Of a stretch of DNA of 64,000 nt, positions 21,476-30,221 are shown piece after piece. The number at the start of each line of letters is the position of its first letter. Position 1 is the stretch's first letter. Under the pieces are notes generated by a model. The model did not search any database and was not told the origin of the DNA. It saw only the letters and a program-made list of their open reading frames with translations. The translations under genes and the position numbers were made by a program. This stretch comes from Dehalococcoidia bacterium (GTDB lineage Bacteria > Chloroflexota > Dehalococcoidia > Plut-88900). Location: NCBI GenBank assembly GCA_965249275.1, contig CBDFLQ010000007.1, forward strand, positions 352,001 to 416,000, written 5' to 3'.

Positions 21476-22165
21476 CTATCCTTTTAGGGTCCACCATTGC
21501 ACTGGCCAATCCCTGGCACGGGCCAGCTTCCCCAATCTGCGTTCCGGGTTTACCGCTATCGGATGCCCCACCAACTCCAGGAGCGGCAGGTCCGAAATGT
21601 CGTCCGCGTAGGCGTAGGAGTCCGACAATACTACCCCACATTTCTCCGCCCAGATCTTTGCGGCCTCCGCTTTCCCGGTTCCACTCAGAGGTCCAAACTC
21701 CAATTCCCCCGTGAATCGTCCCCCGTCCACTTTGCCCCGGGACGCCATCACCTCGTCGACCCCCAGCAAGTCCCCCAGAGGCCTGACCATCTCCATTAGC
21801 CCGCCGGTAAGGAGCACCACCTTGTGACCATCAGTCCTGTGTCGCTCCACCTCATCCCTCGCCTCCCTGAAGAGCCGCCGGCCCCAGTACTCTGCGCCTC
21901 TCCTCTTAGCCCAGCCTACCAGGTCCCCCACCGCTGACCCGCGGTAGTTCTTAAAGAATCCCTTGATGAATTTAACCCTGTCAGTCCAGTCCGTCAGGGC
22001 GTAAAGCGGAATTCTGGGGGCAAAAGCTGCTAACCACAGACTCCGGCTTAAGAGGCCTTTCCCTTCCAGGGCGTAGTCCAGGTAAACGTCCAGCAGATTT
22101 GAAGAGGCGATGGTCCTGTCCACATCAAAGAACGCCGCAACTCTGGCATTAGGCCCTCCCATCAA
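21476..22165 (-). CDS. HAD-IB family phosphatase
   Basis: AAFFDVDRT, LLTGG, GKAEA, SYAYADDISDLPLL...AVNP. Confidence 0.9.
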   Translation of the reverse strand: MMGGPNARVAAFFDVDRTIASSNLLDVYLDYALEGKGLLSRSLWLAAFAPRIPLYALTDWTDRVKFIKGFFKNYRGSAVGDLVGWAKRRGAEYWGRRLFREARDEVERHRTDGHKVVLLTGGLMEMVRPLGDLLGVDEVMASRGKVDGGRFTGELEFGPLSGTGKAEAAKIWAEKCGVVLSDSYAYADDISDLPLLELVGHPIAVNPERRLGKLARARDWPVQWWTLKG

Positions 22166-24404
22166 GCGCCTCGACTGCCGCCTGCACTTCCCCGGTCACC
22201 TCGCGGCTCAACTCACTCAACCCCTTGGCGTCGGCTCCGTCGGACCTGCCCGCGAAGCAGATAGGCGCCCCAAAACGTATGGAGACGGGATGCCGCTTCA
22301 CTCTTACCGTACCTTTAGGCATCGCTTTATGCGAGTCCTTGATAAACGCGGGTACGACGGGGGCCTCGGACATGAGGGCAAGGAACCCTATGCCGTTCTT
22401 GAAGGGTTGTATCCTTCCCGGCCGACCCCTGCTCCCTTCCGGGTAGAAAACCAGTGCGTGCCCCTTTTCCAATACCGCCAACGCCAACCCGAGCTCCTCC
22501 CGAGACGTCCCCTTCCTGTCGAAAGGGATCGCCGTGAACAGTCCCCTTACCATGCGCGACATGAACCCGTTTTCAAAAAAGTAGTCCTTGGCCGCCACGG
22601 GGTGTACTTTCTCACCTCTCCGCCCGAGAGCATGGAATATCACCGGCGTGTCCATGTGGCTATTGTGGTTCGAAGCAATGATATAAGGCCCGGAGTCTGG
22701 AATGTTCTCAAGCCCCTCACACCGGAAACCCGTCCACCACCTGATCGCCGAGCTCATAAGAAAGAACAGAGCTTGCCCCCAACACCTGATCCACAGTGGG
22801 ACCTTGAACCACCTCTCGGCTTCTGCGCCGAATCCCGCATCCAAAACGCGAGTCGCGTTTCCCCTGGACTCAGGGGCCATGCCGAGCAGGTACTTCTTCA
22901 CACCCGGAATATGCACATCCTGAAGGTAGGACTCCCAGTCCAGCTTACCGATATCGAAGTCAAAATTCTCCTTATCACTCTCGTGAAGCGCACCCATCGC
23001 ACTGCGGGTGTTAGTGGTGAGGAACTTGCATTCAGCCTCGGCGTAAGGTCCGTACAACCTGCCGTACTGGTACAGCCTCTCCAGCGACACCATCTTCAAC
23101 TTCAATCTGTTATGAAAGCGTCGGGTCCAAGGCGTAAAGGAGATGGGCGCCGTAGCTGCGATGGCGGCTCGGAGCGGGAGCATATAGCGCAGGCGGATAT
23201 GGCGAAGGAATTTGGTGGTGGTGGGAAAGGTAGGTTTGGTGAGTTTCCTTGCTTGTCCCCCCTCATCCCCTGACACCGGAAACGGGTTCTTCTGGAAATG
23301 CGCGTCAACCTGGTCTGCGAACCCCTCCAGCGTTATCGGGTTCTCCATCCCTGAGGCAATCTGGTACACCTTTGGAGAGTCATCTACCGAGGCTTGCGCG
23401 ACGATGGCCAATATAGCGTTGGCGACCATGTCAACGGGTATGATGTCCAGTATCCCGTCCCGTTTGCCCGGGAAATCGATCATTCGGCCCCGTCCGTAGG
23501 CCACTATCAGCGGGTCGAGCATCCGAAAACCGTTAAGCCAACCCGGTACAGGCGCTTTCCAGGCGCCTTCTATTATGGCCGGCCTGATAATCGCCCCTTT
23601 CATACCTCCAATGCTCCGCACAAACATCTGCTCACCCATCGCTTTGGAGAAGGTGTACACGTCCTGCCAACCGCGCCTGTGAGCCCATTCCATGCCGATC
23701 TTGCTCAGCTGCTTGTCCAGCCGCTCAGACTCGGCGCGGCTAACCTGCCCCTTCGCTCCCCTCACCGACCCCGCTTTCGCCAGAATCGCCTCGATCTCCT
23801 CTTCCACATCGTAGTCTGTCTGGGGAATACCGTTGATGTCCCCGACAGTACGGGTCGGGTCTGGCAGCTCCTCCGACACAGGCCCTTTGCGAGTAGCATT
23901 CACGTAGCAGGTAGAAACTTGGGCGAAAAACGGGTCCTTACATCCCTTTGCGAACTCAACCATTCGACCGGGACCCAAGGTGTTCAATCTCACTGCCGTA
24001 TCCAAAGGCGCATCGAAGGAGACGACCGCGGCGCAATGAATAATTATGTCGACTTCGCCTTGCAAACGCTTGTATGTTTCCGGGTCCAGGCCCAGCTTAT
24101 CTATAGCTACATCCCCTGAGACGGCATGGATCTTGCTATCGAAGAGGCCGTCGAAAGCATCTCCCATCCTGTCTTTCAACGGCTCGAAGATCTGGGATTC
24201 GAAGACTTCCTGTTTGAGTCTTTCGTCTATGGATATAGCTGTGGCTGTGGCCCCGGCCCGTGTCTTGGGCCTGACAAGAACGTAGACAACCGCGATGTCA
24301 GGAAGAAGGCTGAGCATTCTCTCCAGGAGCACTTTGCCCAACAGGCCCGTGCCGCCTGTGAGAAGCACAGTCTTTCCCCTGTAGAAGTCTCGAAGTGGTT
24401 GCAA
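22149..24404 (-). CDS. Fatty acyl-CoA reductase (NAD_binding_4 + Sterile) fused to a PlsC-type acyltransferase
   Basis: TGGTGLLGKVLLE, IIHCAAVVSFD, VSTCYV, YTFSKAMGE, RPAII, DIIPVD; C-terminal NHNSHMD (HxxxxD) and FYPEGSR. Confidence 0.88.
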   Translation of the reverse strand: MQPLRDFYRGKTVLLTGGTGLLGKVLLERMLSLLPDIAVVYVLVRPKTRAGATATAISIDERLKQEVFESQIFEPLKDRMGDAFDGLFDSKIHAVSGDVAIDKLGLDPETYKRLQGEVDIIIHCAAVVSFDAPLDTAVRLNTLGPGRMVEFAKGCKDPFFAQVSTCYVNATRKGPVSEELPDPTRTVGDINGIPQTDYDVEEEIEAILAKAGSVRGAKGQVSRAESERLDKQLSKIGMEWAHRRGWQDVYTFSKAMGEQMFVRSIGGMKGAIIRPAIIEGAWKAPVPGWLNGFRMLDPLIVAYGRGRMIDFPGKRDGILDIIPVDMVANAILAIVAQASVDDSPKVYQIASGMENPITLEGFADQVDAHFQKNPFPVSGDEGGQARKLTKPTFPTTTKFLRHIRLRYMLPLRAAIAATAPISFTPWTRRFHNRLKLKMVSLERLYQYGRLYGPYAEAECKFLTTNTRSAMGALHESDKENFDFDIGKLDWESYLQDVHIPGVKKYLLGMAPESRGNATRVLDAGFGAEAERWFKVPLWIRCWGQALFFLMSSAIRWWTGFRCEGLENIPDSGPYIIASNHNSHMDTPVIFHALGRRGEKVHPVAAKDYFFENGFMSRMVRGLFTAIPFDRKGTSREELGLALAVLEKGHALVFYPEGSRGRPGRIQPFKNGIGFLALMSEAPVVPAFIKDSHKAMPKGTVRVKRHPVSIRFGAPICFAGRSDGADAKGLSELSREVTGEVQAAVEALDGRA

Positions 24405-25272: not shown

Positions 25273-26148
25273 ATGAAACAGCTTGGCCCCGATCAAGTTT
25301 GCCGCAGGTTCTCCGCCGAAGATCTGCCCAGCCTTCGCGTCGAGTCCGGAGAGGTCTTCTCTGTACGGACGACTGACCGGTTCCGGAACGTCTCCAAAAC
25401 CGACCCCGACTTCGCAAAGTCGGACGTTGTCCGGTCCATGAATGGACCCATTTACGTTAACGGGGTCCGCGCGGGCGACACCCTAAAGGTAGAGTTTCTT
25501 TCCATGTCCCCCGCCGAGACCTCCGCCTACGTCCTTGCCCTTCCGGGTCACGGGGCGCTGGGGAGCCGGATTCCCAACTTCCTAATGGAGACCGTAGACG
25601 TTACCGGTAAAGACGCAGTGTTCCCGAATGGCACGTCGGTCCCGATCAGGCCCATGCTAGGCTTGATCGGCGTGGCCCCCGAGCATGGGGAAGCAGGGTT
25701 GAGTGCCACCGGGCCTTTCGGAGGCCAGCTCAGCATCACCGACGTCACGGCAGGCTCTGCCCTCTACTTACCCGTGTTCCACGACGGCGCATTCTTGTCT
25801 ATGGGAGATTCTCATCTCGCTATGGGAGAAGGTGAGTCCACGAGCTCCGCCGTCGAAGGTTCGATGAGTATCACCATCCGGGCCGCGGCTTCTCAAGACG
25901 TAAGAGTTTCGGGCCCCATGGTAGTGACCCCCGAGCATGTGATTAGCTTCGGAAGAGGGGTCACCATGGAAGAGGCTGCTAACGCCGCCACCCTGGCCAT
26001 GGCAGACCTCCTTATGTCCCGACTAAACATATCGGCCACGGACGCCGCCATGCTCATCGGATGCGGAGCAGACCTGCGGACCGCTCTAGCTCTCCATTCG
26101 CCCTACAGCATGAAGATGCTCATGCCCCTCTCCACCCTACCCCTCTAA
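25273..26148 (+). CDS. Acetamidase/formamidase family protein
   Basis: NGPIYVNGVRAGDTLKVE, PMLGLIGVAP, GPFGG, LYLPV..DGA.LSMGDSHLAMGEGE. Confidence 0.88.
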   Translation: MKQLGPDQVCRRFSAEDLPSLRVESGEVFSVRTTDRFRNVSKTDPDFAKSDVVRSMNGPIYVNGVRAGDTLKVEFLSMSPAETSAYVLALPGHGALGSRIPNFLMETVDVTGKDAVFPNGTSVPIRPMLGLIGVAPEHGEAGLSATGPFGGQLSITDVTAGSALYLPVFHDGAFLSMGDSHLAMGEGESTSSAVEGSMSITIRAAASQDVRVSGPMVVTPEHVISFGRGVTMEEAANAATLAMADLLMSRLNISATDAAMLIGCGADLRTALALHSPYSMKMLMPLSTLPL

Positions 26149-26226
26149 CCTCTCGCCCTCTCCCAATCAGAATAAAGTTGGGGGCGGCTAACTCAGCCGC
26201 CCCCAACCTTCCCCATTCATTTTCTC

Positions 26227-26949
26227 CTAGTCCCTGGACACAAACCCTAACAGGCTTAGGATGATCATGAATATGTTCAGGAAGTTCACGTACAACCCGA
26301 TGCTTCCCATCACCGCAACCTGAGTCGCCGCCTCGTAGTTGCCCTGCTCCGCCGCCTGCAAAGCCAACACTTTCATCTGTTTTGTCTGCCACACCGTCAG
26401 CGCTAGGAACAACGGCAGCAAAACAATATTTATCAGCAGGAACAGAAAGCTGGATTGAAGAAGCAAGATGTTTACGAGACTTATGACTATCAACCCAACC
26501 ACGCCGATAATCAGCATCGGACCCCATCTCGAAATATCCCTCTTGGTGGTCATGCCGATTGCGCTCATTCCCACGAACAGCCCCGCGGTCAGCAGGAACG
26601 CAACTGCGATGGTCTCGGTCGTGTATCGGGACACGATCCAGGACAGGAACAACCCTTCCATGGCCGTGAACAGGAGATAGACCCCTGTCGCCGGCCCAGT
26701 GTGCCCCTTCACAGCCAGGCCGTTGGCAGCCATCAACATCCCAAATATCAACCCGAACCCCACCAAGAAACCCAACCACCCGATATTCAGAATGACGTCG
26801 CCGAGCCCTATCCTGTCCCCGACCCATATGCCTGCCCCGGTGGTAATGATCCCCAGGGCCACAAGCCCGTACATCCGGGACATGGCCCCTGTATAAATCT
26901 GGTTGGCTCGTTCCCTACCGAAGCCGATGCTGTATTGGTCCCTGAGCAT
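26227..26949 (-). CDS. Bax inhibitor-1/YccA family membrane protein
   Basis: About 7 TM segments, TTKRDIS.WG, LYVNFLNIF. Confidence 0.88.
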   Translation of the reverse strand: MLRDQYSIGFGRERANQIYTGAMSRMYGLVALGIITTGAGIWVGDRIGLGDVILNIGWLGFLVGFGLIFGMLMAANGLAVKGHTGPATGVYLLFTAMEGLFLSWIVSRYTTETIAVAFLLTAGLFVGMSAIGMTTKRDISRWGPMLIIGVVGLIVISLVNILLLQSSFLFLLINIVLLPLFLALTVWQTKQMKVLALQAAEQGNYEAATQVAVMGSIGLYVNFLNIFMIILSLLGFVSRD

Positions 26950-27083
26950 GGGTCTCAAACTCCCTTTACAAGTAAATGCGGTCCAGCCTCAAATTATACA
27001 TCGCGGGGCTCGTCCCTTCGGGGTAGGCCAGAGGACAAGCGCCTATAAAGTGCAATCAAAGATTCGCCCCAGGCATGTATTGC

Positions 27084-27842
27084 CTAAGGACCAGGAGACT
27101 GAGTTGGGCCGTCCTGCGGAGGACGGGGATGGCTGTGTACCTCCGCCATAAGAAACGCCAAACTCCCGCGCCACAGGTGTACTTGCTCTTCGCCCCAAGC
27201 GGGGTCATAGTCCGGGAATTTGGCCAGAAGCTTCGTCATCATGTCAGAGTTGTGTGGCGATTCCACATGTCCCTTAACGGGCTCCGAGACTCGCACTTGT
27301 GGAGCCGAGGCCGGAGGAGCGCTCGACGGCGCTGCCCTCTTCCTCGGCCCCCGCGTCCCGGACTGCCTATCCCGCGGCGTCTTGAAATGCGGCGAAAGCT
27401 GTATCTCAGCATCTTTGGCTATGCGAAGAAAGAACGTCATGCCCTTTCGCCCTACTTCGTCCTGTGATCCGCCTGTCTTGAATTTCTCAGCAAGGTGATC
27501 GGGAGTTGCAGACCTAAGCATAAGTCCGTCCAGCACCGGCACGTACGCCCTTTCCACTACCTTATACAGCAGCCCCTTTGCCTCATCCTCCCCCGAAGAC
27601 AGCAAGCTCTTGAGCGCATCCGTTGGGTGTCTTTGTGAATCCACCAACCCGAGAAATGCCAGCGCAGACTGCAAATTCGACTCGGCCGACGCGTTGACCT
27701 TCAGTTTCTTGAGGTAACTGTTGTCTATCCGGCTCGGCAAGTGTTGATTGGCAAAGTCCTCCCTCAACGTTTCCAACAGTCGTTGCCATTGAGAGTAAGG
27801 GGGATACGGTGGTCGCCTTTTGCCATTTTCTAACCCTGCCAT
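27084..27842 (-). CDS. DUF5343-like putative DNA-binding protein
   Basis: PPY...LPSRIDNSYL, ALAFLGLVD....PT..L, K..TFFL.IAKDA.I.LSP, basic/Pro linker, LLAKFPDYDPAW tail; family recognised from memory. Confidence 0.65.
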   Translation of the reverse strand: MAGLENGKRRPPYPPYSQWQRLLETLREDFANQHLPSRIDNSYLKKLKVNASAESNLQSALAFLGLVDSQRHPTDALKSLLSSGEDEAKGLLYKVVERAYVPVLDGLMLRSATPDHLAEKFKTGGSQDEVGRKGMTFFLRIAKDAEIQLSPHFKTPRDRQSGTRGPRKRAAPSSAPPASAPQVRVSEPVKGHVESPHNSDMMTKLLAKFPDYDPAWGEEQVHLWRGSLAFLMAEVHSHPRPPQDGPTQSPGP

Positions 27843-27910
27843 GCCGTTTGTCCTTTGTCCGGCTTGTCTGGCACTCGTCCGTTATGGCTATGATACCAGC
27901 CAAAAACGGT

Positions 27911-28101
27911 TAAGGCAATATATGCCATCCCCGACAACTAAGGCAAAAGGTAGTGGCATATTTGCCTTACAGCATTCTGGTTTTGCCTTAGTTTCACAGG
28001 TGCTTTTTCCACGGCTAGAATGGCCTCATATTGCCTGAATTGCACCCGAGGCCGGGACATACACCGACCTTACGAGGCAAAGCCCACAAGGCAATATGCC
28101 A
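27911..28101. repeat. Array of 7 (T/C)(A/C/G)AGGCAA motifs in both orientations
   Basis: +27911, +27939, -27969, -27990, -28038, +28073, +28087; exact 13-bp inverted pair aactaaggcaaaa at 27936-27948 and 27981-27993. Confidence 0.8.
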
Positions 28102-28180
28102 CCGGGTGCCGCCCGGCGGCAAGCGCTATACCTATCGGGATAGCGACCCGGACCGCAGTTCGAAAGGAGGGTTGAATAAA

Positions 28181-29308
28181 ATGGTTGTAGAGCAGTTGTT
28201 AACTAGCAGACCGATTTCCAGATTATCGGTCGAGAGGGCCCCGGCCCGGATTAAGGTGGTCGGCGTCGGAGGAGGCGGTTGTAACTGCGTCCGACGCATG
28301 CTGGCCCACAACGTCCCTGGTGTCGAGTTCGTAGTTGTAAACACCGATATCAAGTCACTGGAATCAGTGACCCACGGCGCCACCGTCCTCCAGATTGGTG
28401 AGAACATCACCCACGGATGGGGCGCTGGCGGAGAGTTCGACATCGGCGAGAAAGCTGCGGAAGAGTCTTCCACTCTTATAAAGAAGGCGCTCAAGAACGC
28501 CGAGCTCGTCTTCCTCACCGCCGGCATGGGCGGCGGTACAGGCACCGGAGCCGCACCCTACGTAGCCGAACTGGCAAAGCAGATGGGCGCCCTCGTTGTC
28601 GGAGTTGTCACAACTCCCTTCAGCTTTGAAGGCACCCGCAGGCTCAGCCAGGCCATCGCCGGCGTCGCACGGCTCCGCCGCCACGTGGACAACCTCATCG
28701 TCATCCACAATGACCGGCTCCTCCAGTTTGTGGACCACGATGCCGGGATGACCGAGGCCTTCCAGACCGCGGACGAGGTGGTCAGCCAGGGCATCGTCAG
28801 TGTCTCCGAGCTCATCAATGTCCCCGGTGAGATCAACGTAGACTTCGCCGACGTCCAGACCATTATGTCCAGCCCCGGTGGCGCTCTCATGGCCATGGGA
28901 CTGGGACGAGGCAGCATGGGCGCACTGGAGGCCGCCAGGCAGGCAGTGACCAACCCCCTCCTCAACCTCTCCATCAGAGGCGCCAAGGGAGTCCTCTTCT
29001 CCGTCAAGGGCGGCGATGAATTGACCCTCGGCGGCGTCAACGCCGCCGGTGAGCTGATCAACAGCGCCGTCGACAAGAACGCCAGCATCTTCTTCGGAAT
29101 GTCCATCGATCCTTCGCTCGGCGACATGGTGAAGCTCACCCTAATCGCCACCGGCCTAAAGCAGGACAAGGGCTTTAACTCCTTCACCGGGAAGTTCAAG
29201 GGACTGTTCCCCGGATTTGAGATGAAGGTGAAGGCCCCTGGCATCATGGGCCGGGGTAAGAAGAGGAAGAAGCGGTCCTCACAGTACGAATGGGACGACG
29301 ACTTTTAG
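28181..29308 (+). CDS. ftsZ: Cell division GTPase FtsZ (atypical C-terminus)
   Basis: IKVVGVGGGGCN, NTD, AGMGGGTGTGAAP, PFSFEG, T7 loop INVDFADV; AAGGAGG RBS. Confidence 0.95.
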   Translation: MVVEQLLTSRPISRLSVERAPARIKVVGVGGGGCNCVRRMLAHNVPGVEFVVVNTDIKSLESVTHGATVLQIGENITHGWGAGGEFDIGEKAAEESSTLIKKALKNAELVFLTAGMGGGTGTGAAPYVAELAKQMGALVVGVVTTPFSFEGTRRLSQAIAGVARLRRHVDNLIVIHNDRLLQFVDHDAGMTEAFQTADEVVSQGIVSVSELINVPGEINVDFADVQTIMSSPGGALMAMGLGRGSMGALEAARQAVTNPLLNLSIRGAKGVLFSVKGGDELTLGGVNAAGELINSAVDKNASIFFGMSIDPSLGDMVKLTLIATGLKQDKGFNSFTGKFKGLFPGFEMKVKAPGIMGRGKKRKKRSSQYEWDDDF

Positions 29309-29465
29309 GTAACCCAGGACTCGGGGCACGGGAGGCGACCCTCAACTCCACCTTCCGTGCCCCCCATCCTTGCCGCATCCTGAAATCGAGCCCGTCGTCG
29401 GATACGGGATGTAATGACAGAGTAGGTCGAGAAACCCGAAACTGAGAATTTGGCAGGTAGAAACC

Positions 29466-30221
29466 GTGGCTTTACAACAGACTCTCCCAACCCCACAAAT
29501 CCAACTGGACCCGGTAGCCAAGATAGCTTTCGAACGGCCTGCTTTGGCCCTCTGCTATCCCTCCCTGAAGCATGCCTCCCCGGCAGCCGAGTTGACTGCC
29601 AGATCAGAAAAGGACGCTGGCAGAAGAGGTCCCAATCACCCCAGCGTCACTCTTCTCCTTTCCAGCATAATTGAGTTGGAGCGTAGGGACATGATTGCCA
29701 TCGGAGCCTCTACCTTCAGAGCCAACCGAGGAGAGGCAGGCGGCATCTGGGTTACCAAGAAGGTGCCCCATTGCCCCGGCAGCGGAATGACTTCGGACCT
29801 CTTCCACAGCATCACCCACGGTTACTCCTCCCTCAAAGACGTCCTCGCCCGCTACTTCCGAGACTCCTTCCGCCAGGACCCCTGGACCCTTGCCTCTACC
29901 CTAGGCATGCAGGAGGCAAAGGCCTACGGGTACCTGACAACCCAGCAATGGCCAGTCACTGGAATCAAGGGTTTCCTGAGCCGCATCGGCCTTTCCAGCG
30001 ACATCCAGACTCTATGGGTTAGGGACGGGCTAAAAGTTAGGGAAGCTACCCAGGCCTCGCGGCTCCTCAGAATTCATATAGACGAGTTTCGCACACGCTC
30101 CCGCAACCTGTACGAAGGCATGCGCGTTGGCATAGCCGAGTCGATTAACAAGATGGATGAGCACCTGACCCCGCGGGTCATCAGGCTCCCACAGCTCAAA
30201 AAGAGGTTTGCCGCAAGTTGA
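29466..30221 (+). CDS. Hypothetical protein
   Basis: 251-aa ORF filling the gap, plausible codon usage, terminator follows; no recognised motif. Confidence 0.6.
   Translation: MALQQTLPTPQIQLDPVAKIAFERPALALCYPSLKHASPAAELTARSEKDAGRRGPNHPSVTLLLSSIIELERRDMIAIGASTFRANRGEAGGIWVTKKVPHCPGSGMTSDLFHSITHGYSSLKDVLARYFRDSFRQDPWTLASTLGMQEAKAYGYLTTQQWPVTGIKGFLSRIGLSSDIQTLWVRDGLKVREATQASRLLRIHIDEFRTRSRNLYEGMRVGIAESINKMDEHLTPRVIRLPQLKKRFAAS

Follow-up and report, generated by a model that had tools for sequence, protein, structure and literature searches.

The locus described here lies in a 64-kb window (the whole stretch of DNA that was analysed, C7:352001-416000) of a Dehalococcoidia bacterium genome of seven contigs and 2,899,744 bases, and comprises a gene for a DUF5343-like protein, a divergently oriented ftsZ gene, here termed ftsZ2, and an array of AGGCAA sites in the spacer between them. 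The DUF5343-like gene (27084-27842, minus strand; PF17278) encodes 252 amino acids and ends in a TAG stop codon, while ftsZ2 (28181-29308, plus strand) encodes 375 amino acids, its ATG at 28181 being preceded by AAAGGAGG. The spacer (27843-28180; 338 bp) has a G+C content of 0.53 versus 0.59. The original prediction, made from the letters of the window, had described seven AGGCAA cores in both orientations within a lower-GC spacer of about 340 bp, together with three GGCA-N3-5-TGCC palindromes starting at 27911, 27954 and 28087, and all of these coordinates and strings were verified in the sequence. It had further proposed that the DUF5343-like protein binds the array and either regulates ftsZ or couples it to the chromosome.

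The seven cores span 27913-28094 and are numbered here as sites 1 to 7 (27913+, 27941+, 27962-, 27983-, 28031-, 28075+ and 28089+). Successive sites are separated by 28, 21, 21, 48, 44 and 14 bp, with mixed orientations, and share, when read in the direction of the motif, a longer consensus of roughly TAAGGCAAWA. An inverted repeat with arms of 9 bp, made up of sites 2 and 3, is nested within sites 1 and 4. The AGGCAA word occurs 1,357 times in the 2,899,744 bases of the genome (0.47 per kb), and the finding of seven copies in 182 bp has a Poisson probability of 6e-12, or approximately 1e-7 after multiplication by the number of windows. No other cluster of at least five sites per 250 bp exists in the 2.9-Mb genome, and at a threshold of at least four sites only one further cluster is added, a four-site cluster in a tandem-repeat coding region of contig C6. 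The 64-kb window holds 36 copies against 28.0 expected, a count reached in four of 100 shuffles; because this enrichment is slight, the signal resides in the local cluster rather than in the word. Among longer words, TAAGGCAA is found in 38 copies genome-wide, four of them in the array and the others single, and AGGCAAWAT in 24 copies scattered singly, these being word counts and not measured binding. The array is thus unique in the genome and therefore does not belong to the regulon of a global regulator. Palindromes of the AGGCA-N-TGCCT type do not behave as a genome-wide operator either, with zero to three copies per spacing and no spacing preferred. A perfect AGGCA-N6-TGCCT followed by ATTGCC is located at C5:653427, in the divergent spacer between lipA and znuA and upstream of the latter, and is probably the site of another regulator, a metal regulator operator. 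A sigma-54 reading of the TGGCAT...TTGCC string in the spacer was rejected, as it would require about four more bases between GG and GC. An Rfam scan of 26800-28400 at E ≤ 1 returned only a chance-level small RNA match outside the spacer, and as such no known RNA family explains the array.

Alignment of the spacers of nine genomes of the genus gave a mean column identity of 74%, interrupted by several invariant blocks, namely GGCAAA at site 2, TTTGCCTTA at site 4, CATATTGCCT at site 5, CAAGGCAAT-N-TGCC at site 7, the CTAGAAT -10 box of the predicted ftsZ2 promoter and the ribosome-binding sites. The AGGCAA sites at 27941, 27983, 28031 and 28089 are invariant across all nine genomes and that at 27913 is partly kept, the sequence around the sites having drifted, while those at 27962 (site 3) and 28075 (site 6) are not kept in the second clade of the genus. 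In the 12 spacers of the family (that of the window and those of 11 relatives) the AGGCAA counts are 7, 7, 6, 7, 7, 5, 5, 4, 4, 0, 5 and 1. The array is real, unique and conserved. Purifying selection acts on it, and both predicted promoters share sequence with it.

An eighth copy, at the stop codon of the DUF5343-like gene, had been taken in the original prediction as evidence that the motif brackets this gene. A copy is indeed present there (27071-27085, minus strand; AGGCAA at 27080-, with the motif extending to 27087), where it forms a stem-loop with a 5-bp stem and a 5-nt loop that begins inside the TAG stop. The AGGCA-N5-TGCCT stem is kept, with a variable loop, in four of the five close genomes and in none of the four second-clade genomes, and one of the four genomes that keep the stem no longer has the AGGCAA word. 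Genome-wide, palindromes of N5 spacing are no commoner than those of other spacings (0-3 each). The AGGCAA word is thus not conserved at this position, and on these comparisons the structure at 27071 is treated as a separate stem-loop, unrelated to the array and not a member of it. A look-alike at C7:100271 was set aside as a different GC-rich intergenic hairpin, of which only two copies exist.

A predicted promoter of ftsZ2 is located at 27993-28021 (plus strand; TTCACA-17-TAGAAT; 10/12 in a consensus scan) and includes the CTAGAAT block that is invariant in the genus. The predicted promoter of the DUF5343-like gene is found at 27890-27918 (minus strand; TTGCCT-17-TATCAT with a TG extension; 9/12 in the consensus scan), and its -35 hexamer coincides with array site 1. 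In this predicted layout, sites 1 to 4 would occupy the approximately 75 bp between the -35 boxes of two back-to-back promoters, site 4 would abut the ftsZ2 -35 box, site 5 would lie at the putative start site (approximately +3 to +8), and sites 6 and 7 would fall within an ftsZ2 leader of approximately 150 nt. The consensus structure of nine leaders computed with RNAalifold contains a hairpin (28124-28145, plus strand) upstream of the ftsZ2 ribosome-binding site, in which the outer two of the four pairs change on both sides in four and three sequences, respectively; the hairpin is thus maintained by compensatory substitutions that distinguish the two clades. In RNA libraries of three studies, ftsZ2 is covered by contigs from position 28050 onward, and coverage of the DUF5343-like gene reaches 27873, which lies 31 nt upstream of the ATG of this gene; such contigs reveal neither transcript ends nor strand. 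Contigs 90-99% like 26100-29500 were observed in RNA libraries labelled as sponge metagenome and in the metatranscriptomes of two other organisms (runs X1, X2, X3 and X9), and the lineage or its close relatives may live in such hosts.

The DUF5343-like protein narrowly passes the Pfam threshold for PF17278 (Bitscore: 29.7; cut-off: 27; residues 15-136), which is its only Pfam match at E ≤ 0.01, and it has no match to PF02381 (MraZ). The NCBIfam scan gave no match and PADLOC gave a weak one to PDC-M34A (Bitscore: 22.6), while a precomputed PF17278 label is carried by 21 of 27 homologues. At E ≤ 0.001 a profile search retrieved 4,038 representatives, 869 of them also at E ≤ 1e-30, and these are mostly full-length proteins of approximately 230 amino acids. 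In the ESM Atlas DUF5343 clusters only were recovered, no match was obtained by tblastn against plasmid and phage records, and a full-text literature search for DUF5343 found no paper naming it. An AlphaFold2 model built from a 124-row alignment (mean predicted local distance difference test score, pLDDT, 85.7) predicts an N-terminal domain (residues 1-150) made up of a two-module (winged) helix-turn-helix (HTH) arrangement, with helices at 16-31, 41-47 and 51-63, a short beta hairpin and further helices at 75-82, 85-100, 114-123 and 128-144. This is followed by a basic, low-confidence or disordered linker (residues approximately 151-198; isoelectric point: 11.7) and a confidently modelled C-terminal helical hairpin (199-237) carrying the sequence KFPDYDPxW, which takes the form KFPxFDPxW family-wide.

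When residues 5-153 of the model were searched structurally against 48,161 chains, the best match was FokI (Z 7.4; 147 residues aligned), followed by BrxA (6.3), 3bhw (6.2), SspB (6.0), N.BspD6I (5.7) and the DNA-binding domain of BpuJI (5.5). These top six align over 135-147 residues, with a root-mean-square deviation of 3.7-4.2 and identities of 8-14%. Regulators with a single winged helix, among them TubR, FtsK-gamma, MarR, GntR and IclR, come next at Z of approximately 4, with TubR (6tey, Z 4.4; 3m8e, Z 4.0) among dozens of tied winged-helix matches. In a comparative paper of 2026 (PMC12839542), the two DNA-binding HTH modules of BrxA are described as homologous to FokI/BpuJI and SspB, and since these proteins are grouped there, the top structural matches amount to one coherent DNA-recognition architecture. 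The DUF5343-like protein is accordingly predicted to resemble a bipartite HTH DNA-recognition fold, a resemblance that does not establish homology. BrxA, FokI, BpuJI and SspB match across its whole N-terminal domain; they share, however, no sequence-level relationship with it, and whereas their context is defence or restriction, that of the DUF5343-like protein is housekeeping. It further differs from them in the added linker and C-terminal hairpin and in lacking an enzymatic partner domain.

The product of ftsZ2 exceeds the TIGR00065 equivalog cut-off (Bitscore: 358.5; cut-off: 295.2) and comprises the Tubulin (PF00091; Bitscore: 155) and FtsZ_C (PF12327; Bitscore: 88) domains. Its GTP-binding GGGTGTG and T7 NVDFAD motifs are intact and are invariant in an FtsZ alignment (A4). 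The tail is short and basic, ends in an acidic-aromatic peptide and is not conserved between the lineages that keep the DUF5343 pairing. FtsZ2 shares 49-56% amino acid identity with the other FtsZ proteins of the class. The absence of ftsA, sepF and dcw neighbours, pointed out in the original prediction, holds at this locus, but a second ftsZ had been missed, which follows mraZ and rsmH on the same contig (C7:570758-573346, with mraZ near 573 kb; L004 8759-11370, minus strand of L004), approximately 190 kb from ftsZ2. In this locus ftsZ1, whose product is 49% identical to FtsZ2, lies directly behind mraZ-rsmH, with nrdR and the gene of a class II-like ribonucleotide reductase coming after it. 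The mraZ promoter (TTGACA-17-TAGAAT) is followed, just downstream of its -10 box, by three GTGG boxes with six-base spacers, which is the arrangement reported for MraZ boxes in PMC12957436, and the mraZ-rsmH-ftsZ1 locus corresponds to the reduced dcw remnant described for Dehalococcoidia in PMC10608941. As a canonical mraZ-rsmH-ftsZ locus exists 190 kb away, the ftsZ of the window is a paralogue with its own control region, unlike the MraZ boxes in sequence.

The pairing of the two genes extends well beyond this genome. A DUF5343-like protein is encoded in 35 of 61 related genomes, including all eight other genomes of the genus and the representatives of all three other genera of the family, and in each of these 11 family genomes its gene is adjacent to and divergent from ftsZ2. 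Across the 11 family loci FtsZ2 is 78-100% identical, while the DUF5343-like protein is 36-94% identical; over the broader alignment (A5) the latter shares 22-94% identity with the protein of the window. Nine further Dehalococcoidia loci with the pair show FtsZ2 identities of 70-73%. A scan based on FtsZ2, covering organisms named as Dehalococcoidia metagenome-assembled genomes (MAGs), yielded 28 loci with at least 63% FtsZ2-like identity, of which 15 have a DUF5343-like gene divergently upstream, ten have sufficient flank and no such gene upstream, and the remaining three do not extend far enough for a judgement. The class was also sampled evenly with 201 genomes; when the coordinates of DUF5343 profile matches were compared with those of FtsZ_C matches, a DUF5343-like protein was found in 88 genomes, and in 35 of these its gene lies within approximately 4 kb of an ftsZ operon and diverges from it. 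The linked genomes fall into six families (f1, 10/10; f6, 10/10; f47, 7/7; f63, 1/1; f36, 1/2; f48, 6/7), and the gene pair is thus conserved. A search of the literature on FtsZ and MraZ in Dehalococcoidia and Chloroflexi, and on DUF5343, found no description of this pairing.

The operons behind the DUF5343-like gene follow four designs, comprising ftsZ2 alone in f1, rsmH, an FtsA-like gene and ftsZ in f6, a conserved 69-amino acid open reading frame (ORF), ftsA and ftsZ in f47, f63 and f36, and three ftsZ genes in tandem in f48. The 69-amino acid ORF (L109 3746-3955, minus strand, which is that of the operon; same place in L111, L112 and L113) has no Pfam match and lies between the DUF5343-like gene and ftsA-ftsZ. 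The tandem arrangement can be observed in L110 (1483-5752; genome G067) and four other f48 genomes, in which a single divergent DUF5343-like gene precedes three intact ftsZ genes. A third FtsZ, 61-63% identical to FtsZ2, is encoded in one genus of the family (L108; G011 C1:266000-272000), where its gene diverges from minC-minD across an 890-bp gap without an ORF of at least 100 amino acids.

MraZ is encoded in 155 of the 201 class genomes, and in the linked genomes of f1, f47, f63 and f36 it is present beside the other ftsZ, these genomes having two ftsZ loci. The search for MraZ gave no match in the ten f6 genomes or the six f48 genomes tested (MAGs of 84-100% completeness). In f6 the locus headed by the DUF5343-like gene holds the sole ftsZ found on its contig and in five f48 genomes it holds all three ftsZ genes found on theirs, while one f48 genome carries two further ftsZ copies on another contig.

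Repeated words also occur in the corresponding spacers of the other lineages, although the word differs. The family genera with no or one AGGCAA repeat GGACA(A/T)-type words instead, as judged by eye. In f47, f63 and f36, a series of (T)GGACA(A/G)T boxes, once three of them at 10-bp spacing, leads into a -35 box of the sequence TTGACG, and in f6 GGACA and GACAA boxes 10-11 bp apart lie upstream of a -35-like TTGAG. TGAAAT is present in 11, 9, 3 and 2 copies in four f48 spacers. The 540 bp upstream of ftsZ2 at eight loci without a DUF5343 neighbour contain at most four copies of any 6-mer, a maximum reached in four of the loci.

The arrangement invites comparison with MraZ and its GTGG boxes, where a small DNA-binding protein likewise heads an ftsZ operon and iterated short sites occupy the promoter, and the ftsZ loci examined are headed by either mraZ or a DUF5343-like gene. 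For MraZ, autoregulation and the control of division genes are established (PMC12957436), whereas for the DUF5343-like protein both are only proposed here. The two differ in fold, MraZ being AbrB-like and the DUF5343-like protein having two predicted HTH modules, in gene order, mraZ being the first gene of its operon and the DUF5343-like gene divergent from it, and in the sites, with three or four direct GTGG repeats of 10-bp period on the one side and bidirectional, irregularly spaced AGGCAA sites on the other.

Given the predicted DNA-reading fold, the conserved array and the recurrent pairing in relatives, the DUF5343-like protein is most likely a dedicated ftsZ regulator. The best reading of the locus, to which we give an even chance of being correct, is that this protein acts through the array as a transcription factor specific to this locus, with its own gene and ftsZ2 as targets. 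Expressed from a promoter back-to-back with that of ftsZ2, it would be a sequence-specific DNA binder composed of a BrxA/FokI-type pair of (winged) HTH modules, a basic linker and a C-terminal helical hairpin, the last of these probably serving oligomerisation. We infer that it is the reader of the array and would occupy the AGGCAA(W) sites at its own -35 box, at the edge of the ftsZ2 -35 box, at the presumed start site and in the leader, and that this occupancy, whichever sign the regulation takes, would set the synthesis of both the DUF5343-like protein itself and FtsZ2. Control of FtsZ2 would in this way be separate from that of the MraZ-controlled mraZ-rsmH-ftsZ1 locus.

Several observations weigh against this transcription factor proposal. 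At the locus itself, the promoters are consensus matches only, contig depth is unable to rank expression, and the three palindromes vary in spacing (3, 4 and 5 bp), whereas a rigid dimeric operator would usually keep it constant. Sites 5 and 7, being inverted copies of each other, pair in the leader consensus computed with RNAalifold as a stem of 8 bp that is invariant, and because both pair in this way, an RNA role of these two sites is indistinguishable from a DNA role. Within the family, one genome (L013) lacks AGGCAA in its spacer altogether and another has a single copy, and the motifs of the other lineages were derived from k-mer counts and by eye, without a background model. The Z scores of the fold matches (5.5-7.4) are below 8, in a range common for helical models, and the Foldseek search for a winged-helix fold suggested with the original prediction returned nothing at E ≤ 0.001 (BrxA: E 0.58), the two-module HTH fold being the yield of the structural search. 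In the class sample 53 of the 88 genomes carry a DUF5343 homologue that is not near ftsZ, and the profile used for these counts was built from ftsZ-linked members and thus favours them. Six unlinked homologues were inspected: gyrB is the divergent neighbour of one and a ParB-like gene that of another, while dprA and pilB directly follow two more; all of the contexts are housekeeping ones. In a quick tree the ftsZ-linked proteins fall into at least four groups interleaved with unlinked ones rather than into one clade, with four label changes, a number equalled by 49 of 500 shuffles. As the linked proteins are scattered in this way, the linkage to ftsZ is either old and often lost or was gained repeatedly.

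The main rival explanation holds that the array is functional and is read by another factor, or that its sites are promoter elements, with TTGCCT as a -35-like hexamer, combined with pairing in the leader RNA; the position of the DUF5343-like gene next to ftsZ would then have a different cause, such as a role of its product as nucleoid protein or protein partner. We consider this unlikely, though a serious contender. In two predicted minus-strand promoters the -35-like hexamer is itself an AGGCAA copy, RNA pairing between sites 5 and 7 is perfect, and the sites are irregular in spacing and orientation. Homologues beside gyrB, the ParB-like gene and dprA would fit a general chromosome protein, and the weak PDC-M34A match (22.6 bits) points to defence-type relatives. 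However, no other conserved DNA-binding gene is present at the locus, where the neighbours encode a Bax1-I membrane protein and a GOLPH3-like protein, and AGGCAA is not clustered elsewhere in the genome. Sites 1 to 4 lie upstream of both predicted promoters and would, if these predictions hold, be outside either RNA. Furthermore, the repeated word differs by lineage while FtsZ2 remains 70-100% identical, which is more easily explained if the fast-evolving DUF5343-like neighbour (22-94% identity) is the reader.

According to the second rival explanation, which was part of the original prediction and which we regard as improbable, the DUF5343-like protein couples the array DNA to FtsZ2, perhaps besides regulating it, so as to tether or position FtsZ2 polymers at this chromosomal site in the manner of TubR-tubC-TubZ or MatP-matS or to block them there in the manner of SlmA. 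Contact with FtsZ2 would be made through the linker, the C-terminal hairpin or the FtsZ2 tail. A DNA-binding domain joined by a long disordered basic linker to a conserved C-terminal module would suit an adaptor, and the predicted DNA-binding fold, the adjacency to ftsZ that persists over four operon types, the single cluster of sites beside the genes, as in centromere-like systems, and the absence of an FtsA or SepF gene next to ftsZ2 are all compatible with coupling. The C-terminal motif is, however, common to hundreds of full-length members, and since these include homologues not beside ftsZ, it is not FtsZ-specific, while the FtsZ2 tail is not conserved between lineages with the pairing. 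Divergent regulator-target pairs are also far commoner than tethers. Prediction of a complex between FtsZ2 and the DUF5343-like protein (18-row alignment each) scored 0.01 against a mark of 0.32, a result that is uninformative either way. The position of the locus speaks for coupling, as its distance from dnaA is 0.32-0.48 genome lengths in all 15 closed genomes, which belong to three families (f1, 0.40-0.48; f6, 0.38-0.42; f47, 0.32-0.40), and so places it in the terminus-proximal half, but these genomes represent three independent lineages and none has the locus at the antipode; the contig of the window shows no turn in GC skew at the locus, the skew being noisy and unable to place origin or terminus.

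Neither of the analogies on which the coupling proposal drew is supported by closer comparison. As in TubZRC systems, a winged-helix DNA binder (here a predicted one), an iterated site and a GTPase of the tubulin/FtsZ superfamily are encoded together, but the TubZRC GTPase belongs to the divergent TubZ clade, whereas FtsZ2 is a true, equivalog-level FtsZ; tubR and tubZ are co-transcribed as an operon that follows direct iterons arranged in tandem, whereas here the genes diverge around 6-9-mers in mixed orientation; and TubZRC is borne on plasmids or phages, whereas this locus is on a 1.09-Mb chromosomal contig and the DUF5343-like protein has no tblastn match in such elements. The similarity to TubR is unspecific, being no better than that to MarR or GntR proteins. 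SlmA with its SBS sites and MatP with matS likewise act as DNA-bound proteins on FtsZ or the divisome, but from many sites over a macrodomain, whereas a single cluster at the gene is found here. SlmA- or Noc-type nucleoid occlusion employs many chromosome-spread sites that are depleted near the terminus, and the folds of SlmA (TetR) and MatP (ribbon-helix-helix) differ from that predicted for the DUF5343-like protein.

The last alternative, that the cluster has no function and merely reflects chance or the composition of an AT-richer spacer, would agree with the lower G+C content (0.53 versus 0.59) and the mild enrichment of AGGCAA over the window, but can hardly be right given the Poisson probability (6e-12), the singularity of the cluster in 2.9 Mb and the invariance of four sites across two clades with otherwise diverging spacers, which already contradicts chance.

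The pairing of the DUF5343-like protein with ftsZ, seen in six families and four operon designs, complements MraZ. More tentatively, and well short of an even chance, DUF5343-like proteins may constitute in wall-less Dehalococcoidia a second, MraZ-independent class of ftsZ "head", such that every ftsZ locus would have either mraZ or a divergent DUF5343 gene at its head, each with a private array. In f6 and f48, where MraZ was not found, the DUF5343-like protein would have become the master controller of division, and its linker and C-terminal module may in addition hold FtsZ on DNA. To our knowledge, the regulation of FtsZ in bacteria without peptidoglycan and most division genes is largely unknown, and we know of no regulator other than MraZ that is commonly associated with operons containing ftsZ. 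DUF5343, a domain whose function is unknown, thereby gains a first testable role: in at least six families of Dehalococcoidia it is a candidate for a dedicated regulator of FtsZ paralogues, or for their DNA coupler. With 27900-28110 defined as a DNA probe and the partner genes identified, this role can be tested in vitro without culturing. The occurrence of multiple FtsZ paralogues with separate control regions further bears on the retention of two or three FtsZ proteins in these bacteria.

Additional genes flank the pair on both sides. Downstream of ftsZ2, a gene encoding a 251-amino acid protein (29466-30221, plus strand) is found in all six family loci with enough flank. The protein is restricted to the family, with 18 homologues that are all at least 60% identical, and a Pfam search assigned it to no family. 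Its model (pLDDT 75.4) has a GOLPH3/Vps74-like predicted fold, with best structural matches to 3kn1_A (Z 7.7) and 2zih_A (Z 7.2) and the next at 4.8; Foldseek placed the same GOLPH3-type entries at the top, at E values of only 0.13-1.1. GOLPH3 is a membrane phosphoinositide-binding protein. As such, the 251-amino acid protein may be a third member of the DUF5343-ftsZ2 module and could serve as a membrane partner for FtsZ2, which has no FtsA or SepF neighbours.

On the other side, the DUF5343-like gene is followed by a gene for a membrane protein of the Bax1-I family (26227-26958, minus strand; Bitscore: 137.5), which is 73-95% conserved in the genus. An ORF at 26120-26827, considered as the gene in this place, was rejected as the wrong frame on the basis of conservation, and two longer-looking ORFs over the DNA of 26227-26958 are shadow frames. 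A 751-amino acid fusion protein encoded at 22149-24404 (minus strand) joins an acyltransferase domain to a fatty acyl-CoA reductase, the latter recognised by its NAD_binding_4 and Sterile domains, a composition that suggests wax-ester or ether-lipid type chemistry.

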